DNA of 64,000 nt, taken from Squalus acanthias (Eukaryota). Below the pieces are notes generated by a model. That model did not search any database. It saw only the letters and a list, made by a program, of their open reading frames with translations, and was not told the origin of the DNA. Within the stretch, counting starts at the first letter, position 1, and each line of letters begins with the position of its first letter. The stretch spans positions 28,830,001-28,894,000 of the forward strand of contig CM059430.1 of assembly GCA_030390025.1 (NCBI GenBank), given 5' to 3'. This document shows positions 1-63,066 of the stretch, in pieces. The position numbers and the translations under genes are program-made.

Positions 1-460
1 GTGGGAAGGAGTCAGCTGGACTTGGCAGGCGAGAAGCCCGTGGAACCGGAGGATCCCAAGCTGCATGTGCCCGAGCCCAAGAGTGGTAGCCCCTCAGATG
101 AATCTACGCTCACAGCTACCAGGGCAGCCCAGCGAGCAAGCTGGTGGTACACGTGTTTGACCAATGATAACCCCTAACCCTCATAACCCACAAATCAAAC
201 TCGCCAAATCAAGTGGCATGAGGCTGTCTCAAACAATCTTGTCATGGACTGATCCACATGGTGCTGGGAACTCGAGGAACAACATATGCAGAACCCAGTG
301 AGAACCCCAAGCAGTGTGAAACTATCTACTGAAAATGGTGTCACACCCCTTGCCTTTAGTGCGGTTGCTAACCAGACAGTTAAATTAACTATCAAATTTG
401 CTTTGATACACATTTGAAGCCCTTCTACACCCATTCAGAAGTGGTGCTGCTACTAGCTCA
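1..460 (+). mobile_element. Highly degenerate non-LTR retrotransposon 3' end, possibly Vingi/Ingi-like
   Basis: Frameshifted conceptual translation gives pieces (IKWHEAVSNNLVMD..., NPVRT...KW...CG..NQTV) resembling the LNRLRTG..KW..CxCG..QT C-terminus of Vingi-type ORFs; many stops. Confidence 0.35.
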
Positions 461-855
461 TAAAATTGAGAATATTTATAAATTACTGTTTACTCTCATT
501 GCTTTTCTCTCAATCTCGGAGAAAATCTGCAAATTGTATGTTTTAGTTTGAAAATTTCAATAACCATTTAACACAGACCTTTACTGATTTTTTTTAACCT
601 TCTTATCATCTTTGATGCTCTTACCTGCTCATTCTTCCCCCTCAATTTTTAGATGTTCAGGGTCCACTGCCACTGCCTTTTCCCACTCCCAGTCTTTGAT
701 TCTTTCTCCTGCCTTTTGACCCACTTCCAGGACCTGAGTCCCTCTCCTGTCCTCATCTTTTGGCCTTTTAACCTGCACCTGGAACCCAAATCCCATTCCG
801 GGCCCATCCTCGGGCCTTTTGGTTCATCGACCTCCAAAGTCCTGCGTCTATCCCA

Positions 856-985
856 ATAACAACAACTTGTATTTATATAGCGTCTTTAACGTAGTAAAAT
901 GCCTCACGGTGCTTCACAGGAGCCTTATCTAACAAAATTTGGCACCGAGCCACAAAAGGAGATATTCGGACAGGTGACAAAAAAG
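856..985 (-). mobile_element. L2 LINE 3' tail fragment
   Basis: Matches the 3' end of the L2 copy at 54827-56037 in reverse, including the (TTG)n tail. Confidence 0.8.
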
Positions 986-3900
986 TAATAGAGGGGTGGG
1001 TGGGCACAGTCCACACTAGTGAATGAATAAAATAATAGAGGCAGGAAGAGATCCATGTGTGCTGCCATTATTCTGCAGGTTTGTGATGATCCTGGCTTGG
1101 AGGCAGAGCGAGGCAAAGGCAACGTTAAGAGGACAGACAGGAAAATGGAGGTCAAGAGCTCAGTTCTTAGGCTTTTTGTTTTGCCTCCATGACTGGGGTC
1201 ACGTCCCCCACCTCAGTTTTTTTTCCTCACAAAAACCACAGATGTGTGCTCAGAAGAGCCGACACTTCCAGCCACAGCTGTATACCACCACTGAGCAGCA
1301 GGAAGACGTGGAGCTTAGGGTGGAGGTCCAACTGCAGAGTGAGTTTAAAACATGCTCAAGCTGCAACTTTCCACAGAGCTGCCCCCGTGAAAGAAATATC
1401 AGAAGAGATCAAAGATGTGAAGGAGATGACATGCTCATTAAAAAACAGGGAGGTCAGAAAGGTCACTGGGCGAAGGAGAAGGATGCAGAGATGGGGGAAA
1501 AGAGAGGAGAAATGGGAGAGGGAAGATTCTTGGGAAAGAGAGATGGGGAGCAGATTTCTGGAGAGACATGGGGAGAAAAATGGGGGGAAAACAAAAGCGA
1601 GGGAGACATCTAGAAATGACAGGGTTGTGAAATATTGGTTGGGGGGTGGGGGGGATGTCCCAGCCCTTTTACCTGTATTTTATGAAAGAGACAGTGAGAC
1701 GGGCATGTGAGAGAGAGATCAGTAGGGAACACACAGGCGGGGAAGAGAGAAGAAAGATGGTGAAAATAGATTATGGGCCCTATTCTCCTCATGCACAGCC
1801 AAGGTCCCTTCGGCCCTGCCCTCACTCTTGGGCCTCCAAAAATAACTCGCCTTGACATTAATGTGAACTGTCTGTGACACTGCAATCCTATAAAAGAACT
1901 GCTTTGAGTCTGCATGAAGTTGCAGACTCTGGCCACTGGGTAGTGATGTGGAGCAGATGAGGTCTTTCTCAAAGCTTTGACACTAGCTTGGATTTTTTTC
2001 ACAATCAATTTCCTCCTCAGTTAAGTTCATATTGAAGTTTTGAAGTTCAAAATTTGCTGTCTTTAATTTCATGTATATTAAAATGTAAACTTTCTATCTT
2101 TCTTGCTGTTTTCCTCTCCCCCCTGGTGTTTTATCACAAGTTCAGAACCCTGCTCTGCTACTGCCCTTTGTGCTGTTGTGCTGACTGCCACGGCTCCTAC
2201 TGGCAGCCTGGTCTGCCTCTTCTTCCCTCCTTACCTTCCCATCAGCCTCTAACCTACTGTGTGTCTGCAGCTGCTGGCCCCACCAGTTGGCCAACCCGTT
2301 CACGACCCCTGGCTGGCTCTCTGTCCATTTCCTGGTCTTTAACATACTGCCAGCTGCCCCATGGTCTGATTCCCAGCTCCACTAACCGATCGGCGAACCT
2401 GCTATCAGTCCTACTGTCGCACTTCTGTGTTGCCAGTTGACTAGCCACCCTGCCCTGGACCCCAGTGCTCCTCTCCAACCAATGTCCCCTTAAACTGCCG
2501 CTCATGACATGAATAATGTTTTTAAAGTTATGAAAGAATTAGATAATGTAGATGCAAGTAAGTTATTTCATTTGCACTGTGAGTGCAGAAGTGGACGAAA
2601 AGAACATTACAAGATGACATTTTACTAATTTGAGTTCATCCTTACAGATTACCCACCTTACTATCTGACCATTGCAATATTCCAGCATTCTCAAACAAAT
2701 GGAAGGAAGGGTGGGAAAAGACCATCATGCCCATAAAGTCCACCCCATCAAGCTATGGTACAATGATGCACATCAATGACATATCCCCTAACCATGCAAT
2801 CTCCTGGGAGATGCAAAAAAAAATCTTCAGCCAATTCAGGAAAATCTCTCGAAAATTTCTGTGAGGAACAACATTTTGTTCGAAGTGTAGAAAGCCTAGG
2901 ATCCTTTGAATTGCATCAGAGAAAAACATGCTGAGGAAAACATGCAGATAAATATTAAGGAGAACAGAGTTGTATCTGAAAAAATGGGGACTTGTGTGGC
3001 AAGTAGTAAAGGCATACTAGGTTGAAGAAGCAAGAACAAACTTGAGTCACTGGAGAGAAACAAGCCTAGGTGATAGAATGTATCATGAAATAATTTGGAC
3101 TATTAATATTTTTTATTTGGAGGCTGGGACAGAGAGGAACATGGCACTGATACTGATTTCATATAATTTGGTGCAAAATCTCCCAGATTAAAATTATTGG
3201 GTGAGATGTGCCAGTCTTCAGAAAGGCAGAAGTGGGCTCCATCGGGATTTCCAGGCCAGGGCACCAGCCTGGACCCCTGAACGTGTGGAGAGCCGCAAAT
3301 GTATAAATATTTAATGTGAAATGAGAGTTAATCTAAGGTGGGCTTCATTGGAGTGGAAAAACTTAATTAACTTGTTCACACAAAGATGGTAATGGAGGTG
3401 ATTGATGACACATTGAAAACACCACTGCCTGTTTTAATTTTCATGCATACGCAATGTAGTTGTGCAAATGTTTGAATTTGAACTAAGCTTAAGCAGTGCT
3501 TGCTGTTGCATCATTTATCTGAAAGGAAACAGACAGGATCAACTTTTCAGAATTTTACGAGCAGTCTTCAATTACCACTGAAGTCTCTCATATATTTTGT
3601 CTAATGCTGTCTCTGTTACAGTTCTATGTTTACAACCAGGTCAGAGGAGAGATATATAATTTTTTCATTTCCTGAAAGTAATTTGCAAACTAGAGTAAAA
3701 GTGGAATGAAAGCACGGTTTCTAGCCAACACTCTACTTGCAATATAAACAGTGAGGCTTTATCTTTCATTCTGCCTTTAAGTTACAAATTTCTTCTTTAC
3801 CCAAATTAACTCGTTGAAAGACCATATAAAACTAATTTCTAGGAGCCAAGGGTAAAGTAGAGTAAAGAGTTTCTGTACTTTGTGGCATTTTTGGTTTGCT

Positions 3901-30975: not shown

Positions 30976-31603
30976 AGAGAGGAGAAAAAAGTAAAAGGCC
31001 ATGATGTGTTTATCAGAGAAGGTCATGCTAAATTAACAGACTTGAAGGGTTATCAATCTGTGAGTACTGAAAAGGTCAGCAGCTTGGCAATTTGGCAGGG
31101 TTTTCTGCACCTTCCCGAGTAATTGAATTATAGAATCACAGGCCAGAATTTTCCCCTAAAAAAAACGGGTGGGCTTGGAGCGTGGGGGCAGTTAAAGTGG
31201 TAAAAATGGTATTCCCGACCTGATCCCGCCTCCAACCCGCCGACTTCCGGTTTTATCGGAGGCGGGATGGGGGGCGGGCAGCCAACCCGCTCCCAGGGGG
31301 CGTTACCTCAATTTAAGTATTGTAATGAGGCTGGAAGCCTCTTTTTCCCCGTCCATTTTGTGTTTAACTGCTTGTGGACGGGTTTCACACAATTCGTGAA
31401 ACCCGGCAGTTAAACAGAGGCGGGGACTGCTGCATCCAGGAGGTAAGTAGCTTTATACCTACCTCCTGGATCCAGGGTCCCAACCTACCCACCCCAAGAG
31501 GCCTCTGATCACCTTCCCAGGTTCCCCGCCAGGCCTCCCTCCTCAAACGATGATGAGGCCGGCCCCGATCCTCTCTCCCCCCCGCCGAACCCACCCCCAC
31601 CAC

Positions 31604-32745
31604 GATCCCTGGCCGAACCCCCCCACCAGGATCCCTGGCCGAACCCCCCCACCAGGATCCCTGGCCGAACCCACACCCTTCCCGACCCCTGGCGACCCCT
31701 GCCGATGCTCTCTCCCCCTTCCCGATCCCCGACCCCTGCCGATGCTCTCTCCCCCTTCCCGACCCCTGCCGATGCTCTCTCCCCCTTCCCGACCCCTGCC
31801 GATGCTCTCTCCCCCTTCCCGATCCCTGGCCGACCCCTGCCGATGCTCTCTCCCCCTTCCCGTTCCCTGGCCAACCCCTGCCGATGCTCTCTCCCCCTTC
31901 CCGATCCCTGGCCAACCCCTGCCGATGCTCTCTCCCCCTTCCCGATCCCCGACCCCTGTCAATGCTCTCTCCCCCTTCCCGATCCCCGACCCCTGCCGAT
32001 GCTCTCTCCCCCTTCCCGATCCCCGACCTCTGCCGATGCTCTCTCCCCCTTCCCGATCCCTGGCCAACCCCTGCCGATGCTCTCTCCCCCTTCCCGATCC
32101 CCGACCCCTGCTGATGCTCTCTCCCCCTTCCCGATCCCCGACCCCTGCTGATGCTCTCTCCCCCTTCCCGATCCCCGGTCGATGCTCTCTCCCCCTTCCC
32201 GATCCCCGACCCCTGCCGATGCTCTCTCCCCATTCCCGATCCCCGACCCCTGCCGATGCTCTCTCCCCATTCCCGATCCCCGACCTCTGCCGATGCTCTC
32301 TCCCCCTTCCCGATCCCTGGCCGACCCCTGCCGATGCTCTCTCCCCCTTCCCGATCCCCGACCCCTGCTGATGCTCTCTCCCCTTCCCGATTCCCGCCGA
32401 TGCTCTCTCCCCATTCCCGATCCCTGTCGATGCTCTCTCCCCTTCCCAATCCCCGCCGATGCTCTCTCCCCTTCCCGATCCCTGTCGATGCTCTCTCCCC
32501 CTTTCCGATCCCCGACCCCTGCCGATGCTCTCTCCACCTTCCCGATCCCCGACCCCTGCCGATGCTCTCTCCCCCTTCCTGATCCCCGACCCCTGCCGAT
32601 GCTCTCTCCCCCGTTCCCGATCCCCGACCCCTGCCGATGCTCTCTCCCCATTCCCGATCCCTGCTCTCGCCCCCCCCACCGATCCCTGCCGATGCTCTCT
32701 TCCCCCTCCCAATCCCCGACCCCTGCTGACTGCCGATCCCCCTCC
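31604..32745. repeat. C-rich minisatellite, ~36-37 bp unit (gccgatgctctctcccccttcccgatccccgacccct) with length variants, preceded by a short ~28-bp unit array
   Basis: Directly visible tandem units. Confidence 0.95.
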
Positions 32746-32808
32746 CGCGATCCCTCCCCCAGATCAGCCCCTCGCTTCTGAGGCCTACCCGCCCGCAGCC
32801 AGCCAGCT

Positions 32809-33653
32809 CATTTGACTGGGTTATACACACCTGCCCATTTGACTGGGTTATACACACCTGCCCATTTGACTGGGTTATACACACCTGCCCATTTGACTGG
32901 GTTATACACACCTGCCCATTTAACTGGGTTATACACACCTGTCCATTTAACTGGGTTATACACACCTGCCCATTTAACTGGGTTATTCACACCTGTCCAT
33001 TTAACTGGGTTATACACACCTGTCCATTTAACTGGGTTATACACACCTGTCCATTTAACTGGGTGAAACACACCTGCCCATTTGACTGGGTTATACACAC
33101 CTGCCCATCTGACTGGGTGAAACACACCTGCCCATTTGACTGGGTTATACACATCTGCCCATTTGACTGGGTTATACACACCTGTCCATTTGACTGGGTT
33201 ATACACACCTGTCCATTTAACTGGGTGAAACACACCTGCCCATTTGACTGGGTTATACACACCTGCCCATCTGACTGGGTGAAACACACCTGCCCATTTG
33301 ACTGGGTTATACACACCTGCCCATTTGACTGGGTTATACACACCTGTCCATTTGACTGGGTTATACACACCTGCCCATTTGACTGGGTTATACACACCTG
33401 TCCATTTGACTGGGTTATACACACCTGCCCATTTAACTGGGTTATACACACCTGTCCATTTGACTGGGTTATACACACCTGTCCATTTGACTGGGTTATA
33501 CACACCTGTCCATTTGACTGGGTTATACACACCTGCCCATTTAACTGGGTGAAACACACCTGCCCATTTAACTGGGTTATACGCACCTGTCCATTTGACT
33601 GGGTTATACACACCTGCCCATTTGACTGGGTTATACACACCTGCCCATTTGAC
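32809..33653. repeat. 27-bp minisatellite (catttgactgggttatacacacctgcc), about 31 copies
   Basis: Directly visible; 9-aa periodicity in the overlapping ORFs. Confidence 0.97.
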
Positions 33654-33819
33654 ACCCAGTTATTAGTCTGTTCATTTGATGGGTCATAGGAACATAAGAA
33701 TGCATGGAATGAGAAAAGGTTATTTGGCCTCAAGGCTCTTCCTTCCACAGACCATGTACTAACCATATATACTAGACCCTACTCTATCCCACGATTCTGT
33801 AATATTTCTCCTTGTCTCA

Positions 33820-34385
33820 CTTCAAAGGCAAATCAAGGCCAGTTATCTTGCCCTTGACATTTAATACACCACCATCACCAACTCCAGCATCAAACCTTGG
33901 GAGTCACTAATGATCAGAAGCTTAATTGGACCAGCCATATCAACACATGGCTACAAGCTGGATATCCTACAGTGAGTACCTCACCTGGTCACCCTTCTAA
34001 GCATCTCCATCATCTACAAAGCTCAATTCAGGAGTACTGTAACACTCACCAATCACCTGGATTGGTACAGTTGCAACAACACTCAAGAAACCCAAGAGGG
34101 ACAAGATCAGCAATGTTGTGGGAACACCATCACCTTCAAGTTCCCCTGCAAGTCACACATGCTAACCTGGACAAAATATTGCCATTACTTTGTCATCACT
34201 GCTGTAATATCCTAGAATTCCCTACCTGGAATTCCACCACCACCATTTTGGAAGCACCATCACCACAAGGACTACAGCAGTTCAAAGAGAAGGTCCGCCA
34301 CCACCTTCTCAAGGCAACTAGCGATGGGCAATAAATGCGGCCTTGCCAGAGTCACCTACATCCAGAGTACAAATTAAAAAAAGTC
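33820..34385 (+). mobile_element. Old 3' fragment of the tRNA-headed CR1-group LINE family
   Basis: GVTNDQKLNWTSHIN...HHLLK and tail gatgggcaataaatgcggccttgccag shared with the 39 kb and 60 kb copies. Confidence 0.85.
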
Positions 34386-38349: not shown

Positions 38350-40920
38350 CAAGATCACAAGATAATTACGGACGAGGAAGGCCATTCGGCCCATCTTAGT
38401 TCATTGATCCAGAGAGATCCAAGTGCCTGCATTGTAGCATCCAATTACTTTGTAAATACTCCTCTATCTGGAAGTTTACTCCACATGTTGATCACTCTTT
38501 GTGTGAAGAAAAATTTTCTGATATTAGTCCCAAAGTTACCTTTGACTAGTTTGAATGCGTCTCCTAGTTCTACTTCCACAGTTTAATCTGAAATAATATT
38601 CCGCAGTTTAATCAAAGTATGGAACAATCTTATATACCTCTACAAGATCACCTCTCAGATGCCTCTTTTCTTAGTTGAAAAGCCCATGTTTCTCTCGTCT
38701 TTCCTAATGCCACCGCCACTGTAGATCAGCCTAGTAGTTCTTTTCTGCACTGCCTCCAGCATATGAATATCTATCTCATTTCTTAGTGGCCAGAACTGAA
38801 TGCATTATTCAAGGCACAGTCTGACTAGAGCACTATACAGTTTGTTCCTTACCTCCTCTGACTTATATTCTACTATTTTGGCTGTGTAGGTCAACATTTT
38901 GGCTTTGCTGAATGCTGCTCTGTATTGGTTGGATATGTTTAGCGTCAATCTCCAAGGTTTCTTTCCTTAAATACTTCAACAAATATACGTGCTGTCTATT
39001 ATTCCTACCTGTGCGCATCACTTTACCCTTTTCTGCATTAAATATTGTCTTTTTTAAAAAATCGTTTATGGGATGTGGGCATCGCTGGCAAGGCCAGCAT
39101 TTATTGCCCATTCCCTAATTGCCCTTGAGAAGGTGGTGGTGAGCCGCCTCCTTGAACCGCTGCAGTCCGTGTGGTGAAGGTACTGCCACAGTGCTGTTAA
39201 GGAGGGAGTTCCAGGATTTTGACCGAGCGACGATGAAGGATCGGCGATATTCTTCTAAGTCAGGATGGTGTGTGACTAGGAGGGGAACCTGGAGGTGATG
39301 GTGTTCCCATGCGCCTGCTGCCCTTGTCCTTCTAGTTGGAAGAGGTCGCGGGTTTGGGAGGTGCTGCCGAAGAAGCCTTGGCGAGTTGCTGCAGTGCATC
39401 TTGTAGATGGTACACACTGCAGCCACAGTACGCCGGTGGTGGAGGGAGTTAATGTTTAAGGTGGTGGATGAGGTGCCAATCAAGTGGGCTGCTTTGTCCT
39501 GGATGGTGTCGAGCTTCTTGAGTGTTGTTGGAGCTGCGCACATCCAGGCAAGTGGAGAGTATTCCATCACACTCCTTACTTGTGCCTTGTAGATGGTGGA
39601 AAGGCTTTGGGGAGTCAGGTGGTGAGACATTCGCCACAGAATACCTAGCCTCTGACCCGCTCTTGTTGCCACAGTATTTATGTGGCTGGTCCAGTTAAGT
39701 TTCTGGTCAATGGTGACCCCCAGGATGTTGATGGTGGGAGATTTGGCGATGGTAATACCATTGAATCTCAAGGGGAGGTGGTTAAACTCTTGCTTGTTGG
39801 AGATAGTCATTGCCTGGCACTTCAGTGGTGCGAATGTTACCTGCCACTTATCAGCCCAAGCCTGAACGTCGTCCAGGTCTTATTGCATGCGGGCATCGAC
39901 TGCTTCATTATCTGAGGAGTTGTGAATGGCACTGAACACTGTGCAGTCATATCAGCGAACATCCCCATTTCTGACCTTATGTTGGAGGGAAGGTCATTGA
40001 TGAAGCAGCTGAAGATGGTTGGGCCTAGGACACTGCCCTGGGGAACTCCTGCAGCGATGTCCTGGGGCTGTGATGATTGACCTTCAACCACCACAACCAT
40101 CTTCCTTTGTGCTATGCATGACTCCAGCCAGTGGAGCGTTTTCCCCCCAATTCCCATTGACTTCAGTCTGCCGTTGTACTGCCCACTCATATTTTGTCCA
40201 ACACATTCAGTAATTTCTGAGCTGCTTCCTCTAATTCCAATGCCCTCTTAATTTAATCACTTTGCATTGACTGTCTGAATTAAAGTAATTTATGTAAATT
40301 AGAAACAGTAGGGATCCCAGCACCAAGTCCTTAGGCACTCCACTCGGTACTTCTCCCCACTCCAACACAACTCATCCAATGAGAACTCATTATTTCCTAT
40401 TCTTCAGCCAGTTTTCTATTCATTTAACCTGAATCCCCGCAGCTTTGAGGTTAATTAACAGTCTTACGTGTGGAACTTGTATCAAAAGCCTTTTGGAAGT
40501 TGAGGTGCATACACCACATCATAGGACTTACCAAAGTCCACTTGGGTTGTTACTTCCTTAAAGAAGTCGAGGAGGTTGATCAGGCAGGATCTTCCTGTTC
40601 TGCGTCCATGCTGACTGCTGTTAACTGGATTATTGTAACACAGAAATCCTCAAATTTACTCTTGATAATTGATTTCATTATTTTACATGGAATGGAAGTA
40701 AAATGGATGACTCTGTAGTTTCCTGTGTCTATTTTGTCACACTTTTTGAATATGGGGACCACATTGTGATCTACTGGTACCTCCATAGTGTTCATTGACT
40801 CCCTCATAATGATTGTCAGTGTCTCACTAATCTCCTCCCCAGTCTTTCTAAGAGTGCTTGGATAAACACTCTCCATCCCTGGGGATTTATTTGTTTTGAG
40901 CCCATTTAGCCTGTCTAGGC
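38350..40920 (-). mobile_element. Old CR1 fragment split by a younger LINE
   Basis: CR1 tail at ~38375; VVPIFKKCDKIDTGNYR in ORF 40580-40876. Confidence 0.75.
39050..40165 (-). mobile_element. 5'-truncated CR1-group LINE (tRNA-headed family), RT C-terminal half
   Basis: GVPQGSVLGPTIFSCFINDLP, MFAD, LGVTIDQKLNWTSHI, YKAQVRSVMEY motifs; closely similar to 60322-61320. Confidence 0.93.
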
Positions 40921-42658: not shown

Positions 42659-43057
42659 TCCTTTTTCCATCTTTGTCAGGTTCCTGGTGTGGCGGCGGAC
42701 CTGTGTGAGGCGAGGCGGCGGCAAAGGGTTTAAAAGGCTCCAGAGACCAGGTAAGGCGGGACCAGTCTCCGAACTCGGAGGGAGGGAGAGAAGTAAAAAT
42801 AATCGAGGTGTGACGTCACCAGAAAGCAGGTAAGTAATTGGTTGGTGAGTATTTCTCTCTTTTTAAACTTAAACTCTGTGGGTTATAGTTAATAAGGCCT
42901 TTCTGGTGCAGAGTGACTGTTGGTAAACCATTTAACTGGTGTAATTTAGAGGGATTAATTTAATTTAAATCCAATTAATTAGAGGGGATACTAGCATCTA
43001 TAATCGAGCAGAGAGTGTCCATAACTAACAATAAAAAAATGTAATTAATTACATAGA

Positions 43058-44011
43058 ATGGAGCAGGTGATGTGTTACTGTTGCGAGATGTGGGAGCCGG
43101 TGGACCCCATTGAGGCTCACAGTGATTACATCTGTGACAAGTGTCTGCTGCTACAGGAACTCCAGCTCCGTATTGATGAGCTGGAGTCTGAGCTTCAGAC
43201 ACTGCGACACATCAGGGTGGGGGAGAAGTACCTCGACTTTGTGTTTCAGGAGGTGGTCACACCTATGAAGTTAATTAATTCAGATGTAGCCCATGGTCAG
43301 GGACAGGACGGTGTGACTACGAGTGAGGCAGGCACGGGGATCCAGGAGGTAGTGTTGGAGGAGCCGCAGCCCTTGCTCTTGTCCAACAGGTTCGAGGTTC
43401 TTACTCACTGTGGGGACTGGAGCAGGGACTGCAGGGAGGATGAGCAACCTGGCCACAGCACCGTGGAATGGGGGGCCATTCAAGAGGGGGGAGTAAATAG
43501 AAATGTTGTAGTGGTAGGGGATAGTATTATTAGGGGGATAGATAGAGTTCTCTGCAGCCGAGAGCGAGAGTCCCATAGGCTGTGTTGCCTGCCCGGTGCC
43601 AGGGTTAAGGACATCTCCTCTGGGCTGGAAAGAAACTTGCAGTGGGAGGGGGTGGATCCAGTTGTCGTGGTCCATGTTGGTACAAATGACGTAGATAGGA
43701 CAAGGAAGCAGGTTCTGTTAAAGGAGTATGAGCAGCTAGGGGTCAAATTAAAAAACAGAACCTCAAGGGTATTAATCTCTGGATTATTACCTGAGCCACG
43801 AGCGAATTTGGCTAGGACAAATAAAATTAGAGAGTTAAATGAGTGGCTCAAAGACTGGTGTGGGAGAAATGGGTTTTTCTTCCTGGGACACTGGCACCAG
43901 TACTGGGGCAGGAGGGAGCTGTTCCGTTGGGACGGGCTTCACTTGGCCAGTGCTGGGACTAGAGTCCTGGCGGATCATATAACTAGGGCTGTGGAGAGGG
44001 CTTTAAACTAA
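43058..44011 (+). CDS. CR1 ORF1p: zinc finger/leucine zipper plus SGNH esterase domain (317 aa, intact)
   Basis: CxxC..CxxC then LQELQLRIDELESEL; esterase blocks VGDS, PGA, HVGTND, DGLHL. Confidence 0.92.
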   Translation: MEQVMCYCCEMWEPVDPIEAHSDYICDKCLLLQELQLRIDELESELQTLRHIRVGEKYLDFVFQEVVTPMKLINSDVAHGQGQDGVTTSEAGTGIQEVVLEEPQPLLLSNRFEVLTHCGDWSRDCREDEQPGHSTVEWGAIQEGGVNRNVVVVGDSIIRGIDRVLCSRERESHRLCCLPGARVKDISSGLERNLQWEGVDPVVVVHVGTNDVDRTRKQVLLKEYEQLGVKLKNRTSRVLISGLLPEPRANLARTNKIRELNEWLKDWCGRNGFFFLGHWHQYWGRRELFRWDGLHLASAGTRVLADHITRAVERALN

Positions 44012-44034
44012 CTAGTGGGGGGGAGGTTCCTAGA

Positions 44035-47000
44035 GTGCAAATAATAAAAATGACAACAGAGAAGGTCATAGACTTAGGTAGCAGTGGGGAAATTAAAAAC
44101 CAGAGTGTGTCAGGAAGGGGCAGACGGTATGGAGTAAAAGGTAAAGTAATAAAAAGGGCAAAAGCAGGAACTAAGTGTCACAAAACATATTTGAAAGTTC
44201 TCTATCTGAATGCACGTAGCATTCGTAACAAAATAGATGAGTTAACGGCACAAATAACTACATATGGATATGATCTTGTGGCCATTACAGAAACATGGCT
44301 GCAGGGTGACAATGCCTGGGAATTAAACATACCAGGTTATTTAACGATCAGGAAGGACAGGCAGGAAGGAAGGGGAGGTGGGGTGGCTATGTTAATAAAG
44401 GAAGGAATCACTGTAATACAGAGAAATGATATTGGGTCAAAAGATCAGGATAATGAAACAGTTTGGGTGGAGATAAGGAATAAGAAGGGGAAAAAAACAC
44501 TAGTGGGCGTAGTCTATAGGCCTCCGAACAGTTGCAACTCTGTTGGACGGAGTATCAATCAGGAAATAGTTGAGGCTTGTAATAAGGGAACATCTTTAAT
44601 TATGGGGGATTTTAACTATCATATTAATTGGACAAATCAAATTGGGCAGGGCTGCCTTGAAGATGAGTTCATTGAGTGTATTAGGGATGGGTTTCTTGAG
44701 CAGTATGTAACTGAACCGACCAGGGGGCAAGCAACCTTAGATCTGGTCCTGTGTAACGAGACAGGATTAATTAAAAATGTCCTAGTAAAGGATCCCCTTG
44801 GAATGAGTGACCATAACATGGTTGAATTCCATATTCAATTAGAGGGTGAGAAGGTTGGATCTCAAACAAGCGTGCTAAGCTTGAATAAAGGAGACTATGA
44901 AGGTATGCGAGCGGAATTGAGTAGAGTGGATTGGGTAAATAGATTAAAGGGTAAGACGATACATGATCAGTGGTGTACATTTAAGGAGTTATTTTACAAC
45001 TTCCAAAAAATATATATTCCACTGAGAAGAAAAGGGTGTAAAAGAAAAGACGGTCATCCATGGCTAAGTAAAGAAATTAAGGATAATATTCGACTAAAAA
45101 CAAGGGCTTATAAGGTAGCAAAATCTAGTGGGAGGATAGAGGATTGGGAAAACTTTAAAAGACAGCAAAAAATAACAAAAAGATTGATTAAGAAAGGGAA
45201 GATAGATTATGAAAGTAAATTAGCAAAAAATATAAAAACAGATAGTAAGAGTTTTTATAGTTATATAAAAAGAAAAAGGGTGGCTAAAGTAAATGTTGGT
45301 CCCTTGGAGGATGAGACCGGGAAATTAATGGTGGGAAATATGGAGATGGCAAATACACTGAATGAATATTTTGTATCAGTCTTTACAGTAGAGGACACGA
45401 AGAATATCCCAACACTGGACAAATAGGGGGCTATAGGGGGGGGAGGAGCTAAACACGATCAAAATCACTAAGGAAGTGGTACTCGGTAAAATAATGGGAC
45501 TCAAGGCGGATAAATCACCTGGACCTGATGGCTTACATCCTAGGGTCTTGAGGGAAGTGGCGGTAGGGATTGTGGATGCATTGGTAATAATTTTCCAAAA
45601 CTCCCTGGACTCAGCAAAGATCCCGGCAGACTGGAAAACTGCTAATGAAACACCCTTATTTAAAAAGGGCAGTAGACAGAAGGCTGGAAACTATAGACCG
45701 GTTAGCCTAACATCTGTGGTAGGTAAAATTTTGGAGTCCATTATTAAGGAGACAGTAACGGGACATTTGGATAATCATAATTTAATAGGACAAAGTCAGC
45801 ATGGTTTTATGAAGGGGAAGTCATGTTTGACAAATTTGCTGGAGTTCTTTGAGGAAGTAACATACAGGGTGGATAAAGGGGAACCAGTGGATGTGGTGTA
45901 TTTAGACTTCCAAAAGGCATTTGACAAGGTGCCACACAAGATTATTGCTTAAGATAAAAAATCACGGGATTGGGGGTAATATTCTGGCATGGATAGAGGA
46001 TTGGCTATCTAACAGAAGGCAGAGAGTTGGGATAAATGGTTCATTCTCAGACTGGCAATCAGTAACTAGTGGTGTTCCGCAGGGGTCAGTGCTGGGTCCC
46101 CAACTCTTTACAATCTATATTAACGATTTGGAGGAGGGGACCGAGTGTAACATATCAAAGTTTGCAGATGATACTAAGATGGGAGGGAAAGTAGTGAGTG
46201 AGGAGGACATAAAAATTCTGCAAGGGGACATAGACAGGCTAAGTAAGTGGGCAGAGATTTGGCAGATGGAATACAATACTGGAAAGTGTGAGGTTATGCA
46301 CTTTGGCAGGAAAAATAGTAGAGCAAGTTATTATCTAAATGGCAAGAAACTGGAAAGTACTGAAGTACAAAAGGATCTGGGGGTCCTGGTGCACGAAACT
46401 CAAAAGGTTAGTATGCAGGTGCAGCAAGTGATTAAGAAAGCCAATGGAATGTTGGCTTTCATTGCTAAGGGGATAGAATATAAAAATAGGGAGGTATTGC
46501 TTCAGTTGTACAAGGTATTGGTGAGACCGCACCTGGAATACTGCATACAGTTTTGGTGTCCATACTTAAGAAAAGACATACTTGCTCTCGAGTCAGTACG
46601 AAGAAGGTTCACTCGGTTAATCCCGGGGATGAGGGGATGGACATATGAGGAGAGGTTGGGTAGATTGGGACTCTACTCATTGGAGCTCAGAAGAATGAGA
46701 GGCGATCTTATTGAAACATATAAGATTGTGAAGGGGTTGGATCGGGTGGATGCGGGGAGGATGTTCCCGATGATGGGTGAAACTAGAACTAGGGGGCATA
46801 GTCTTAGAATAAGGGGCTGCTCTTTCAAAACTGAGATGAGAAGGAACTACTTCACTCAGAGGGTGGTAGGTCCGATGAATATGCTGCCCCAAAAAGCTGT
46901 AGAAGCTACATCATTACATAAATTTAAAACAGAAATAGACAGTTTCCTAGAAGTAAAGGGAATTAAGGGTTACGGGGAGCGGGCAGGAATTTGGACATGA
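44035..47000 (+). pseudogene. CR1 ORF2 (endonuclease-RT) with a premature stop and frameshifts
   Basis: YLNARS, ITETWL, MGDFN, SDH (endonuclease); NYRPVSLTS, LDFQKAFDKV, GVPQGSVLGP, FADD (RT); TAG at 45424-45426 with a nearby G-run frameshift, and a frameshift near 45945. Confidence 0.93.
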
Positions 47001-47437: not shown

Positions 47438-49810
47438 CATAGAATCATAGAATTTAGGAGCAGGAGTAGGCCATTCGGCCCCTCTAGCCTGCTCCGCCAT
47501 TCAATGCGATCATGGCTGATCATCCAAATTCAGTACCCTGTCCCTGCTTTCTCCCCATATCCCTTGATCTCTTTTGCCTTAAGAAATATATCCAACTCCT
47601 TCTTGAATCTATTTAATGAATTGGCCTCTACTGCCTTCTGTGGCAGAGAATTCCACAGGTTCACCACTCTCTGGGTGAAGAAATTCCTCCTCATTTCTGT
47701 CCTAAATGGCTTACCCCTTATCTTTAAACTGTGACCCCTGGTTCTGGACTCCCCGACCATCGGGAACATCCTTCCTGCATCTAGTTTGTCCTGTCCTGTC
47801 AGAATTTTATAAGTTTCAATGAGATCCCCTCTCATTCTTCTAAACTCCAACGAGTATAAGCCCAATCAACCCAATCTCTCTTCATACGTCATTCCTGTCA
47901 TCCCAGGTATCGGCCTTGTGAATCTTCGCTGAACTTCTTCCATGGCAAGAACATCCTTCCTCAGATAAGGCGACCAAAACTGCACACAGTACTCAAGGTG
48001 TGGTCTCACCAAGGCCCTGTACAACTGCAGCAAGACTTCCTTGTTCCTGGACTCAAACCCTCTCGCTATGAAGGCCAACATACCATTTGCCTTCTTCACC
48101 GCCTGCTGCACCTGCATGCTTACCTTTAGCGATTGGTGCACAAGGACACCCAGGTCTCGTTGCACTTCCCCTTCTCCCAATTTATTGCCATTCAGATAAT
48201 AATCTGCCTTTCTGTTTTTGACACCAAAGTGGATAACCTCGCATTTATCCACGTTATATTGCATCTGCCACGCTTCTGCCCAATCACCCAACCTGTCCAA
48301 ATCATCCTGGAGTTTCACGGCATCCTCCTCGCAGCGCACACGCCCACCCAGTTTTGTGTCGTCTGCAAACTTGGAGATATTACATCTAGTTCGCTTGTCT
48401 AGATCATTAATATATATTGTGAATAGCTGGGGTCCAAGGACCGATCCCTGCGGTACCCCACTAGTCACTGCCTGCCACTCGGAGAAAGACCCGTTTATTC
48501 CAACTCTTTGCTTTCTGTCTGCCAACCAGTTCTCTATCCAAGTCAATACCTTGCCCCCAATCCCATGTGCCTTAACTTTACACGCTAATCTCTTATGCGG
48601 GACCTTATCAAAAGCCTTTTGGAAGTCCAAATACACCACATCCACTGGTTCTCCCTTATCTATTTTACCAGTTACATCCTCAAAAAATTCCAGTAGATTA
48701 GTCAAGCATGATTTAACTTTTGTAAATCCATGTTGACTTTGTCCGATCCTGTCACTGTTTTCCAAGTGCTCTGCTATTACATCTTTTATAATGGACTCCG
48801 GCATTTTCCCCACTACCGATGTCAGGCTTACCGGTCTGTAATTCCCCGTTTTCTCTCTACCACCCTTTTTTGAATAGTGGGGTAACATTAGCTACCCTCC
48901 AATCCATGGGTACTGTTCCAGATTCCATCGAATGTTGGAAGATGATCAGCAATGCATCTACTATTTCTAGGGCCACTTCCTTAAGTACCCTAGGATGTAG
49001 ATTATCAGGCCCTGGGGATTTATCGGCCTTCAATCCCTTCAATTTCCCTAACACCATTTCCCTGCAAATACTGATTTCTTTCAGTTCCTCCCTTTCATCA
49101 GACGCTATGTTCCCCAACATCTCTGGGAGGTTATTTGTGTCCTCCTTTGTGAAGACAGAACCAAAATATGCATTTAATTGGTCTGACATTTCTTTGTTCC
49201 CCATTATAAGTTCCCCTGATTGTGACTGCAAGGGACCTATGCTTGATTTCACTAATCTTTTTCTCTTCACATATCTATAAAAGCTTTTACAGTCAGTTTT
49301 TATGTTCCCTGCAAGCTTACTCTCGTATTCTATTTCCCCCTTCTTAATTAATCCCTTTGTCCTCCTTTGTTGAATCTTAAACTGCTCCCAATCCTCAGGG
49401 TTACTGCTTTTTCTGGCCAATTTATATGCCCTCTCCTTGGATCTTATGCTATCCCTAATTTCCCTTGTTACCCACGGTTGAGTCACCCTTTTTGTTTTAT
49501 TCTTATGCCAAACTGGGATGAACAAATTCTGTAGTTCGTCCATGCGGTCTTTGAATGTTTGCCATTGCCTATCCACCGTCAACCCTTTGAGTGACATTCC
49601 CCAATCAATCCTACCCAACTCGCACCTCATACCATCGTAGTTTCCTTTATTTAAATTCAGGACCCTAGTCTCTGAGTCAACTACTTCACTCTCCATCCTA
49701 ATTCTATCATATTATGATCGCTCCGACCCAAGGGGCCTCGCACAACAAGATTGCTAATTAATCCTTTCTCATTGCAGAATACCCAGTCTAAGATGGCCTG
49801 ATCTTTGGTT
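47438..49810 (-). mobile_element. 5'-truncated CR1 LINE (different subfamily), ORF2 from the end of the endonuclease to the tail
   Basis: ORFs 48857-49696, 47866-48888 and 47530-47865 carry RT motifs; (ATTCTATG)n tail. Confidence 0.96.
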
Positions 49811-50450: not shown

Positions 50451-50646
50451 GCTATTATTTGCTCGCGTGCCTTTTAAATACATTTTTAATAACTGTAAAA
50501 GTTATAGCGCTGACTTATATGCGATAGAATCATGCAGCACAGTGATGATGCTGATAACTGGTACATCATTGCATTGAACTCTGTACAACAGTGTGCCCTG
50601 AGTCAGTAGATGCCATCCAGTCCACAAGCTCACTGTTAGCACTGGT

Positions 50647-51391
50647 CGTCATCACTGGCCTTCAGTGTGCTAGTGCAGCCTTCGGTCGCCTGAGAAAGAG
50701 AGCGTTTGAAGACCAGGACCTCAAACCCGGCACTAAGCTCATGGTCTACAGAGCAGTAGTGATACCCGCCTTGCTGTATGCCTCAGAGACATGGACCATT
50801 TACAGCAGGCACCTCAAAGCACTGGAGAGGTACCACCAACGCTGCCTCCACAAGATCCTGCAAATCCATTGGCAGGATAGGCGCACCAACATCAGTGTTC
50901 TCGCTCAGGCCAACATCTCCAGCATCGAAGCTTTGACCACGCTCGATCAGCTCCGATGGACGGGTCACATCGTCCGCATGCCCGATACGAGACTCCCAAA
51001 ACAAGCGCTCTACTCGGAGCTCCGACACGGCAAAAGAGTCCCAGGTAGGCAGAGGAAACGCTTCAAGGACCCCCTCAAAGCTTCCTTGAAAAAGTGCAAC
51101 ATCCCCACTGACACCTGGGAATTCCTGGCCCAAGAACGCACAAAGAGGAGGAGAAGCATCCGGGAGGGCGCCAAACACCTCGAGTCTCTTCGCTGGGAGC
51201 AAGCGGAAGTCAAGCGCAAGCAGCGCACGTCAACCCAAGCACCCCCCCCACCCCTTCAACCACCGTCTGCCCCACCTGTGACAGAGACTGTAGGTCCCGT
51301 ATTGGACTCATCAGTCAACTGAGAACTCATTTTTAATGTGGAAGCAAGTCATCCTCGGTTCCGAGGGACTGCCTCAGAGAGAGAAGAGAAG
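50647..51391 (+). mobile_element. RTE-clade LINE 3' fragment
   Basis: ASAAFGRLRKR, TKLMVYRAVVIPALLYASETW, QLRWTGHIVRM, GRQRKRFKD; TSD AGCACTGGT at 50638-50646 and 51392-51400; GA-rich tail. Confidence 0.93.
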
Positions 51392-52115
51392 AGCACTGGT
51401 GAAACACAGACTAACTGAAATTTATGTGGTACTAAACTAAAGGGTAAGATAAAAAAATTACCCAACAACCCAAGAGGGAATCATAAAAGGGTTTTAAAAA
51501 GTGTCTACTCAGTAAGTGAAACCACACTGAAGCAAATTAAATTTAACACTTCCACTTACAGAACCATCACAAGATATGCTTGTACCCTCCACACACACAC
51601 AGCAACTGCACCGAAACCTTTGAGAATTATGGTTTCATTTTGCACAATTTTAATTGCAAGGCATATAATGCAATTAAAGTATTTTTTGCAATTATTTCCT
51701 CTACCTTTTAAGAACTATAGGTTGCTGTTGAGAAATGAAACTACCCATGACAGCGTGTTACCACACTTCTGTCATGGATCCAAAGCAGCTCTTATGAGAT
51801 GTGATGATCTTTTACTTAAGTGAAAGTAAGTTAGTTTAATGCCACCAAAGGTACAAAATTGGACCAAGTCGATACAGAAATTATTAATTGTTGTAAAAAT
51901 ATGACAGTGTGCTTTGTGGATCAGTTAGGTGTATGACCGCATCGCTTGGCAAATAACATTGCAGTATCATTGATGCCCAGGATCTCGTTTACATATCACT
52001 TTATAAAAGCACGTTTTGCATCAAAACATTTGATTTCAATTAGAAATTTTATTGGAGATATTTGAACAGAAAGCTTGCATGTTCTGAATGCAAAAGTTTG
52101 CAAGACAATTATATT

Positions 52116-60321: not shown

Positions 60322-63066
60322 TTTTTTTATTCGTTTATGGGATGTGGGCGTCGCTGGCAAGGCCAGCATTTATTGCCCATCCCTAATTGCCCTTGAGAAG
60401 GTGGTGGTGAACCGCTGCAGTCCGTGAAGGTACTCCCACAGTGCTGTTAGGTAGGGAGTTCCGGGATTTTGACCCAGCGACAATGAAGGAACGGCGATAT
60501 ACGACTAAGCCAGGATGGTGTGTGACTTGGAGGGGAACTTGGAGGTGGTGGTGTTCCCATGCGCCTGCTGCCCTTGTCCTTCTAGGTGGAAAAGGTCGCG
60601 GGTTTGGGAGGTGCTGCCGAAGAAGCCTTGGCGAGTTGCTACAGTGCATCTTGTAGATGGTACACACTGCAGCCACGGTATGCCGGTGGTGGAGGGAGTG
60701 AATGTTTAAGGTGGTAGATGGGGTGCCAACCAAGCGGGCTGCTTTGTCCTGGATGGTGTCGAACTTCTTGAGTGTTGTTGGAGCTGCACTCATCCAGGCA
60801 AGTGGATAGTATTCCATCACACTCTTTACTTGTGCCTTGTAGATGGTAGAATGGCTTTGGGGAGTCAGGAGGTGAGACATTGCCGCAGAATACCTAGCCT
60901 CTGATCTGCTCTTGTTGCCACAGTATTTATGTGGCTGGTCCAGTTAAGTTTCTGGTCAATGGTGACCCCCAGGATATTGATAGTGGGGGATTCGGCGATT
61001 GAATGTCAAGGGGTGGTGGTTAGACTCTCTCTTGTTGGAGATAGTCATTGCCTGGCACTTCTGTGGCGCAAATGTTACCTGCCACTTATCAGCCCAAGCC
61101 TGAACATTGTCCAGGTCTTGTTGCATGCGGGCATGGACTGCTTCATTATCGGAGGAGTTGTGAATGGCACTGAACACTGCAGTCATCAGCAAACATCCCC
61201 ATTTCTGACCTTATGTTGGAGGGAAGGTCATTGATGAAGCAGCTGAAGATGGTTGGGCCGAGGACACAGTCCTGAGGAACTCCTGCAACGATGTCCTGGG
61301 GCTGTGATGATTGACCTTCAATCACTCTCGGTCAAATGCTGCCTTGATGTCAAGGGCAGTCACTCTCACCTCACCTCTGGAATTCAGCTCCTTTGTCCAT
61401 GTTTGGACCAAGGCTGTAATGAGGTCGGGAGCCAAGTGGTTTTGGCAGAACCCAAACTGGGCATCAGTGAGCAGGTTATTGGTGAGTAAGTGCCGCTTGA
61501 TAGCACTGTCAATGACACCTTCCGTCACTTTGCTGATGATTGAGAGTAGACTGATGGGGCGATAATTGGCCGGATTAGATTTGTCCTGCTTTTTGTGGAC
61601 AGGACATACCTGGGCAGTTTTCCACATCGTCAGGTAGATGCCAGCATTGTAGCTGTACTGGAACAGCTTGGCTACAGGCGCGGCTAGTTCTGGAGCACAA
61701 GTCTTCAGCACGATAGTCGGGATTTTGTCAGGGCCCATAGCCAGTGAGCTTAGCTGTTTCTTGATATCACGTGGAGTGAATCGAATTGGCTGAAGACTGG
61801 CTTCTGTGATGGTGGGGACCTCAGGAGGAGGCCGATATGGATCATCCACTCGGCACTTCTGGCTGAAGATGGTTGCAAACGCTTCAGCCTTGTCTTTTGC
61901 ACTCACGTGCTGGGCTCCACCATCATTGAGGATGGGGATATTCATGGAGCCTCTTCCTCCCGTTAGTTGTTTAATGGTCCACCACCATTCATGACTGGAT
62001 GTGGCAGGACTGCAGAGCTTTGATCTGATCCGTTGATTATGGGATCGCTTAGCCCTGTCTATAGCATGCTGCTTCCGCTTTTTAGCATGCATGTAGTCCT
62101 GTGTTGCAGCTTGCCCAGGTTGGCACCTCATTTTTAGGTACGCCTGGTGCTGCTCCTGTACACTCCTTATTGAACCAGGGATGGTCCCCTGGCTTGATGG
62201 TAATGGTAGAGTGAGGGATATGCCGGGCCATGAGGTTACAGATTGTCGTGGAATACAATTCTGCTGCTGATGGCCCACAGTGCCTCATGGATGCCCAGTT
62301 TGGAGCTGCTAGATCTGTTCTGAATCTATCCCATTTAGCACAGTGGTAGTGCCATACAACACGATGGAGGGTATCCTCAGTGTGAAGACGGGACTTCGTC
62401 TCCACAATGACTGTGCGTTGGTCACTGCTACCAATATTGTCATGGACAGATGCATCTGCGACAGGTAGATTGGTGAGGACGAGGTCAAGTAGGTTTTTCC
62501 CTTGTGTTGGTTCTCTCACCACCTGTCACAGGCCCAGACTGGCAGCTATGTCCTTCAGGACTCGGCCAGCTCAGTCAGTACTGACATTGAAGTCCCCCAC
62601 CCAGAGTACATTCTGTGCCCTTGCTACTCTCAGTGCTTCTTCCAAGTGGTGTTCAACATGGAGTACTGATTCAACAGCTGAGGGAAGGTGGTAGGTGGTA
62701 ATCAGTAGGAGGCTTCCTTGCCTGATGCCGGGTGGTCCGCCCAGTTTCATTCTTATTATTTTGTTTCGTAGCGGTTTGTTACAACTGAGTGGCTTTCAGA
62801 GGGCAGTTAAGAGTCAACCACATTGCTGTGAGTCTGGAGTCACATATAGGCCCTAATTCCCTAAAGGACATCAGTGAACCAGATGGGTTTTTACAACAAT
62901 TTCATGGTTACCATTACTGATACTAGCTTTTTATTCCAGATTTATTTAATTAACTGAATTTAAATTCCCCAGCTGCCGTGGTGGGATTTGAACTCACGTC
63001 TCTGGATCATTAGTCCAGGCCTCTGGATTACTAGCCCAGTGACGTTACCACTATGCTACCGTTCCC
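60322..63066 (-). mobile_element. CR1-group LINE with a tRNA-derived 5' head and no ORF1 (internally deleted copy)
   Basis: Head 62760-63066, then endonuclease (LLLITTY, VLWVGDFNV, LLDLVLTN, SSDQ), RT (NPANYRPISLLS, DIKAAFDR) and A-rich tail; several small deletions. Confidence 0.9.
62985..63058 (-). promoter_or_regulatory. Type-2 RNA polymerase III internal promoter
   Basis: A-box TAGCATAGTGG (63048-63058) and B-box GTTCAAATC (62985-62993). Confidence 0.8.

Follow-up and report, generated by a model that had tools for sequence, protein, structure and literature searches.

Can a long interspersed nuclear element (LINE) be driven by the promoter of a short interspersed nuclear element (SINE)? 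This question is raised by positions 60322 to 63066 (minus strand) of the window, which is the whole 64,000-nucleotide (nt) stretch of Squalus acanthias DNA that was analyzed (assembly GCA_030390025.1, contig CM059430.1, positions 28,830,001 to 28,894,000 of the forward strand). The first-pass annotation, made from the letters of the window, described a tRNA-derived head that runs directly into coding sequence for an endonuclease and a reverse transcriptase (EN-RT), and it proposed RNA polymerase III (Pol III) transcription under selection against terminators. Upon comparison with the whole genome, the architecture (tRNA-like head, SINE body, single EN-RT frame, stem-loop and A tail) is family-wide, and the family is abundant. 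As judged from its sequence, the full-length RNA is likely made by Pol III, taking together two routes by which the protein may be produced. The narrower reading, in which RNA made by Pol III from the A and B boxes of the head would itself be translated from an internal non-AUG start into one EN-RT protein, is evenly balanced between right and wrong.

Architecture and abundance of the family

The element and its parts, together with two related copies in the window, are the following (ORF, open reading frame; UTR, untranslated region; Pol II, RNA polymerase II).

60322..63066, minus strand, 2745 nt: decayed copy of a ~3.3-kb SINE-headed LINE that lacks ORF1
62967..63066, minus strand: tRNA-like head, its first base being the fixed 5' end of the family
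63048..63058, minus strand: A box
62985..62993, minus strand: B box
62917..62966, minus strand: AT-rich stretch with two AATAAA and one ATTAAA (resembling Pol II poly(A) signals) and no run of at least four T
62779..62916, minus strand: SINE body common to the short forms, ending at the last stop codon before the long frame; presumably Deu-domain-like
62723..62778, minus strand: A-rich unstructured linker and start of an Arg-rich N-terminal extension of the ORF, without in-frame AUG
60383..62722, minus strand: remaining single ORF, with the C-terminal half of the APE endonuclease, the reverse transcriptase (Pfam RVT_1) and a C-terminal domain
60590..60593, minus strand: sole run of at least four T in this copy, arisen by a private mutation and not shared by the family yardstick
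60322..60383, minus strand: 3' UTR stem-loop and A tail, common to the short forms
39050..40165, minus strand: sister copy, 5'-truncated (90.8% identity over 1030 nt)
33851..34381, plus strand: 3' fragment, old and diverged (67-68% identical), from this family or a related one

The 3.7-Gb assembly was searched for further copies. From two similarity searches, 59 loci were taken by similarity, not by intactness; 39 of them have both ends, and the least deleted ones are ~3.3 kb long. A yardstick was built from the commonest letter per column of 36 copies (35 loci and the window copy; 3312 columns), from which the copies differ by 3-5%. None of the 39 loci (of 59) with both ends is fully intact, the longest stop-free stretch being 744 amino acids (aa). 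Compared with the yardstick, the window copy has 16 deletions as well as stops and frameshifts in its ORF and is thus dead; the FADD motif of its reverse transcriptase is at 61190-61182 (minus strand). The N-terminal half of the endonuclease was removed by a 338-nt deletion (between 62723 and 62722) that this copy alone carries. The order described in the first-pass annotation (head, EN-RT coding sequence and 3' tail, with no ORF1) holds for the family, but the junction that it saw is specific to this copy. It gave ~300 bp for the head, while head and body together cover ~330-340 nt where intact.

The order recurs at independent loci, whichever side is used for the search. With a head-only query, 40 scored matches were obtained and 30 taken; 26 of the 29 non-self loci run on into the ORF. 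Of the other three, two form a duplicated pair that is interrupted in the linker, and the third is a short form. From the other side, a 30-mer of the N-terminal ORF extension has 747 exact matches genome-wide (control: 0). The first 41 listed matches, minus one already in the sample, gave 40 loci picked by this 30-mer alone, and in 39 of these, head sequence is directly upstream. Nineteen reach to within 15 nt of the 5' end, 20 are truncated inside the head and one at the linker. Since only a part of the aligned copies (21 of 83) retain the 30-mer, the number of copies that reach the linker is estimated at roughly 3000 or more. Contigs from the runs of other organisms also bridge the head and the linker or endonuclease (X9 records 27-28, X19 records 18-21, X10 record 1).

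Both the A box (63058-63048) and the B box (62993-62985) are confirmed, at the 5' end as in a tRNA-derived SINE head. Of 83 aligned copies selected by similarity, 46 begin at column 1 and 57 within columns 1-3; the 5' end of the family thus coincides with the base that opens the tRNA-like part. The B-box 12-mer is unaltered in 54 copies, each variant occurring in at most two. The head holds a ~22-nt insertion relative to a tRNA, which by eye resembles a duplicated anticodon arm. At the other end, the stem-loop has a fold z of -2.4, with 3 of 200 shuffles being equally stable. The copies are dispersed and 5'-truncated and have a common 3' end with an A tail (86 distinct tails were examined), as is typical for LINEs. 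Target-site duplications, another LINE hallmark, were not recognized beyond a doubtful 6-8 nt match in only 2 of 22 copies with complete 5' end. Elements of the CR1/L2 group often lack them.

The number of T right before the A tail varies from 1 to 10 (e.g. at 39050-39060 of the window and in L080, L089 and L138), and 13 of the 86 tails have a run of at least four T within 22 nt. This variation could record Pol III RNAs that ended in oligo-U and were then polyadenylated, or only mutation by hairpin formation or slippage. The 36 aligned copies also carry ~3.6 internal deletions of at least 5 nt each (130 scored, median 15 nt). Microhomology of at least 2 nt is found at 76 of the 130, and the deletions seem many for copies that are 3-5% diverged.

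Short derivatives that unite the same head with the same tail, which the first-pass annotation had named as a check alongside recurrence of the junction, do occur. A query across the head-tail junction of one of them (L112) gave 40 scored matches, nearly all of full query length. All 30 short forms taken join the head (~1-340) to the last ~135 nt of the LINE, their tails being 79-94% identical to it over ~115-145 nt, and one junction pattern alone has 320 exact matches genome-wide. There are several types of junction. In one, the head part ends in the AAGTAT linker letters that mark an older subfamily of the LINE; a second type fits a different linker variant. Since such subfamily-specific linker letters are retained, several short forms must, on this evidence, have arisen from the headed LINE by internal deletion, and repeatedly so. 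They are short and non-coding, as SINEs are, in contrast to the 3.3-kb element with its 973-codon frame. From the fit of layout and length, the short forms and the head are putatively SacSINE1/Deu.

Coding frame, relatives and origin of the head

The yardstick has a single open frame (columns 330-3248, 973 codons). In natural copies (L033 and L076), Pfam assigns Exo_endo_phos (E 1e-10) and RVT_1 (E 2e-38), and the catalytic motifs are kept. An APE endonuclease upstream of the reverse transcriptase within one ORF is the layout of APE-type non-LTR elements (LINEs). Only ~330 nt precede the ORF, so that the element differs from canonical two-ORF LINEs (CR1, L1, most L2), in which ORF1 precedes ORF2; none of the full-length copies carries an ORF1, as had been proposed. 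A 76-codon upstream frame (from column 274) was considered as an ORF1 remnant and rejected, as it has a stop in 27 of 82 copies and its second ATG is lost in 10 of 76. Codon differences between subfamilies are synonymous in 11 of 21 and 18 of 36 cases (one of the 36 leads to a stop), which indicates that the ORF frame is under purifying selection between subfamilies.

The start of translation is unusual. The last stop before the long frame is at column 327, nine ATGs are upstream of the frame, and the first in-frame ATG is at column 1188, 286 codons into it. Because half of the codon changes are synonymous, also between the last stop and the start of the endonuclease (4 of 8), the probable start of translation is upstream of the endonuclease motif, within the A-rich linker or shortly behind it. 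With nine upstream AUGs and no in-frame AUG, cap-dependent scanning would miss the ORF too. Two ATGs were rejected as general start codons. In almost every copy, the ATG at column 303, in the ORF frame, has TAG and/or TAA behind it (of ~130 long copies, 4 have sense codons, GAG and TAC, in place of both stops, and there may be further single cases); an ATG at column 339 is seen only at the rate expected from CpG decay.

Close protein relatives occur in Heptranchias, Heterodontus and Pristiophorus (73-87% identity). The nearest non-shark proteins are invertebrate-type ORFs with 36-40% identity, among them P0024 from Branchiostoma lanceolatum. A metagenome scan yielded 19 related loci. Among the closer relatives, only L150 and L153 show upstream DNA of the element itself. 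They share a leader of ~200-300 nt (by eye) before the endonuclease and have no ORF1; neither an A or B box nor an Rfam tRNA match was detected in them, and their T runs are normal in number, unlike those of the headed family. Several other relatives have ORFs of 935-983 aa on 3.2-4.1-kb contigs, which leaves little room for an ORF1. Since L150 and L153 are both ORF1-less and unheaded, it is likely, as far as two loci can tell, that ORF1 was lost first and that the head was gained later by an already ORF1-less LINE.

In a quick IQ-TREE analysis of 35 reverse transcriptase domains, the family is placed in a 27-row clade (SH-aLRT 97) together with elements of invertebrate type; the three L2 rows (99) and the single CR1 row of this genome are placed elsewhere, and the family thus does not group with L2 or CR1 members. 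The family is probably not a canonical L2. This tree contains no named Repbase references, so no clade name is given. A search of PDB returned only L1 ORF2p and R2.

P0022 and P0024 are also poor in Phe (2.3% and 1.5%), and P0022 has an N-terminal extension that is rich in Arg and begins with Met; both are candidates for further headed lineages. Five other relatives (L157, L159, L160, L161 and P0011) look ORF1-less and have a long hydrophobic N-terminal extension with a 2A-like NPGP motif at its end.

Shortage of T tracts and the choice of polymerase

Runs of at least four T (T4 runs) terminate Pol III in vertebrates. The scarcity of T runs on the sense strand, on which the initial proposal was built, is confirmed. 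The window copy has exactly one T4 run (60593-60590), and its 8 runs of at least three T (T3 runs) compare with 13 runs of at least four A. At the position matching its TTTT, the sister copy reads GGAAGAGG, and the sole T4 run of that copy is in the 3' tail. The two CR1 ORF2s of the window, in contrast, have 8 and 5 T4 runs. The yardstick has no T4 run and 7 T3 runs in its 3312 columns, whereas the corresponding numbers (at least four/at least three) are 15/47 for A, 11/51 for C and 9/38 for G. Phe accounts for 18 of the 973 ORF codons, with a TTC:TTT ratio of 15:3.

When protein and codon usage of the ORF are kept fixed, 5 T3 runs are observed and 11.4 expected (P=0.003). Five-nucleotide windows with at least four T are non-canonical terminators of human Pol III (PMC3141230). 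The ORF has 1 such window where 9.5 are expected (P=0.002; this statistic was picked post hoc, after the copy data had been viewed), while the equivalent windows of A, C and G are at expectation. The single remaining one is TTCTT, which belongs to the weakest terminator class. The non-coding head has none, with 5.4 expected (P=0.03). Thus, as in SINEs, an internal Pol III terminator is absent (no T4 run and one TTCTT in the entire yardstick).

In control elements, windows with four of five T number 43 (48 expected) in CR1a, 27 (32) in CR1b and 30 (23) in L2, all from the window; an RTE control has 8 T3 runs (8.1) and 5 such windows (8.1). Ten metagenome relatives have these windows at 0.59-1.15 of expectation and the headed family at 0.1. 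All metagenome loci with testable frames (15 of 19) have at least two T4 runs, and an L2 yardstick from the same genome has 7 in 2488 columns. Three fragments that are 66-68% identical to the family are T-poor (T3 runs: 3 vs 10, 2 vs 5 and 15 vs 17 expected), these being decayed singletons. Pyrimidine tracts (36 vs 31), 3'-splice-like sites (8 vs 6.5) and 5'-splice-like sites (5 vs 2.6) show no depletion, and two AATAAA are retained within the first 140 nt, so the T-tract shortage is not an effect of splicing or polyadenylation. In total, the data support selection against T tracts, with a shortage that is specific to strand and base.

If Pol III makes the full-length RNA, the following course of events can be envisaged. 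An already ORF1-less LINE would have gained the head by template switching. TFIIIC and Pol III would transcribe from +1 across 3.3 kb, and given transcription through the element by this polymerase, source elements gaining a T tract would be lost. The RNA would end at a T run within or beyond the A tail. Ribosomes would gain access through the A-rich linker, which follows the last stop (column 327) and precedes the Arg-rich extension, and the protein would bind the 3' stem-loop and copy the RNA by target-primed reverse transcription. Time and again, internal deletions would give rise to Pol III SINEs in which both ends are retained. Translation of engineered Pol III RNAs is possible, if inefficient. 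The element would then be an autonomous "coding SINE" of 3.3 kb with a terminator-purged ORF and a non-AUG start on uncapped RNA, and the parent from which shark DeuSINEs repeatedly arose by internal deletion; this whole picture may equally well prove true or false.

A number of observations count against transcription by Pol III or against translation of such RNA. The absence of T4 runs from the ORF is, with protein and codon usage fixed, within chance (0 vs 1.9, P=0.11), so that the proposed selection against terminators is borne out for TTT and for windows with four of five T, beyond composition and codon usage, but not for T4 runs alone. Natural RTE copies (13 of 13; 0.84-1.5 kb, T content 16-19%) have no T4 run either; thus, the absence of TTTT is not diagnostic. 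The L2 yardstick of the same genome has 44 T tracts where 59 are expected by composition. Unheaded LINEs can be mildly but significantly depleted as well, as is seen in three of ten unheaded relatives (L157, 68 vs 97, and L161, 80 vs 100, both P<0.005; L159, P=0.045). Ongoing selection was not detected, since variants shared by at least three copies occur at 2 of 151 sites where they create T windows and at 40 of 2359 other sites, and are thus not rarer at the former; in 7 of 36 copies, TTTCT results from a single shared change. The older subfamilies have no window with four of five T in 1.8 kb; they differ by a few percent only and are not independent. (A search with L145 for an independent old subfamily as a replicate gave mostly the same family.) The match of the head to the Rfam tRNA model is weak (22.2 bits, E 0.26; the gathering score of 29 is not reached), and ARAGORN found no tRNA gene in any of 8 loci tested for the head. 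As the absence of ORF1 predates the head, it is no argument for Pol III. Concerning translation, no near-cognate start codon is conserved (the ACG at column 339 is ACA in the AAGTAT subfamily), and no stable fold resembling an internal ribosome entry site was found in the linker (z=+2). Pol III RNAs have no 7-methylguanosine (m7G) cap and are generally not translated (PMC2666806).

Part of these observations would be accommodated if the head were an ordinary Pol II 5' UTR or promoter, with A and B boxes that are vestigial or function in the short forms only, and if the T-poverty went back to something else, for instance to a Pol III phase in the past or to a bias at the RNA level. LINEs normally use internal Pol II promoters (PMC2666806, PMC5786205), and a capped RNA would ease translation. 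The non-significant absence of T4 runs, their absence from the T-poor RTE copies and the shared variants without sign of ongoing selection fit this view. It leaves unexplained why the 5' end is exactly at the first base of the tRNA-like part and why the ~10-fold depletion concerns T specifically, with pyrimidine tracts and splice-like sites being spared. A Pol II transcript would also have to survive the two AATAAA in its first 140 nt, and scanning from its cap, past nine upstream AUGs and with no in-frame AUG, would miss the ORF just the same. We regard Pol II transcription as rather unlikely.

The work might also be divided, with Pol III RNA being copied while the protein comes from capped Pol II read-through of copies in host units and acts in trans via the 3' stem-loop. 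All Pol III signatures would be explained in this way without translation of an uncapped RNA, and short non-coding forms are mobilized in trans through the same tail. Yet an ORF supplied purely in trans would be free to decay, while half of the subfamily changes are synonymous and the frame has stayed open; the AUG-less start would still require internal initiation. Such a split is, in our view, unlikely.

It is very improbable that the long form is a non-autonomous passenger, i.e. a SINE with a swallowed LINE ORF that is spread by the enzyme of another LINE. The missing start codon and the lack of a fully intact copy would suit a passenger, but the copies were not selected for intactness, and purifying selection in the ORF frame between subfamilies and the kept catalytic motifs speak against it. 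Chance insertion of a SINE beside a truncated LINE, suggested by the mid-endonuclease junction of the window copy, is next to impossible, being refuted by the recurrence of the head-linker-ORF order at the independent loci and by the contigs of other organisms that bridge it.

Several neighbors of the element in the window are repeats as well. Another SINE with a tRNA head, distinct from the one described above, is ~230 nt downstream of the LINE (60093-59780, minus strand); it has A and B boxes as well as short repeats at its 3' end and probably resembles the shark V-SINE HE1. A near full-length CR1 (43049-47000, plus strand) has an ORF1 coding for an esterase (GDSL) and an EN-RT ORF2, and a second CR1 ORF2 is at 47530-49711 (minus strand). 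An RTE family is represented at 50558-51430 (plus strand); its copies (L229-L248) are ~94-95% identical, and all 20 taken are 5'-truncated to 0.8-1.6 kb. G/C-skewed tandem repeats at 31400-33700 result in long spurious ORFs on both strands.

Comparison with known systems

The divide between LINEs and SINEs rests on the polymerase and on coding capacity, and an autonomous element with a SINE promoter would break it. In published definitions, "SINEs cannot encode a protein" (PMC5786205) and SINEs are defined by Pol III (PMC4494074). If the Pol III reading is right, a vertebrate has a natural multi-kilobase protein-coding Pol III unit, and it becomes testable how an uncapped RNA is translated and how conserved SINE bodies and their partner LINEs originated. 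In the literature searched, no autonomous LINE with a tRNA head was found, though an undiscussed Repbase or Dfam consensus may exist.

ZfL2-2 and UnaL2 are APE-type LINEs without ORF1. RTE, Ingi/Vingi and 2A-bearing elements of the CR1 group, as described in PMC3894237, likewise have a single APE-RT ORF, a 3' stem-loop and 5'-truncated copies. With Alu and B2, the element shares internal A and B boxes, the absence of an internal terminator, an A tail and independence of ORF1p: these Pol III-made RNAs retrotranspose with ORF2p alone, as stated in PMC2666806. Alu and B2 are, however, 0.2-0.3 kb long and non-coding, while the element described here has 3.3 kb and is coding.

DeuSINEs of sharks, chimaera and coelacanth (SacSINE1, LmeSINE1) consist of a tRNA-related head, a central body and a LINE-type tail of ~140-160 nt, with a total of up to 463 bp (PMC5499810, PMC4824008, PMC3747384). 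The short forms described here (~340+135 nt) share this layout and length. DeuSINEs are described there as non-coding, with L2-2_CM (78.6%) or a "CR1-4_DR-like" element as the tail donor. In Squalus, unlike that description, a 973-codon EN-RT frame is enclosed by the same head and tail. Even with Pol II transcription, the likely partner and parent of shark short elements would be identified.

Bipartite non-autonomous elements (Bov-A and Bov-tA from BovB, SINE2-1_ACar from Vingi-2, RIME from Ingi) likewise combine the 5' part of an ORF1-less LINE with its 3' part and arise by internal deletion (PMC5786205, PMC4494074). PMC5786205 names only RTE, Ingi, Vingi and R2 as sources of such elements, so even under Pol II the route from LINE to SINE seen here would be one outside these groups. 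In systems of the Bov-tA type, as described there, the tRNA head was joined to the short form afterwards and the LINE is unheaded; here, the presumably autonomous element of CR1-group type bears the head itself.

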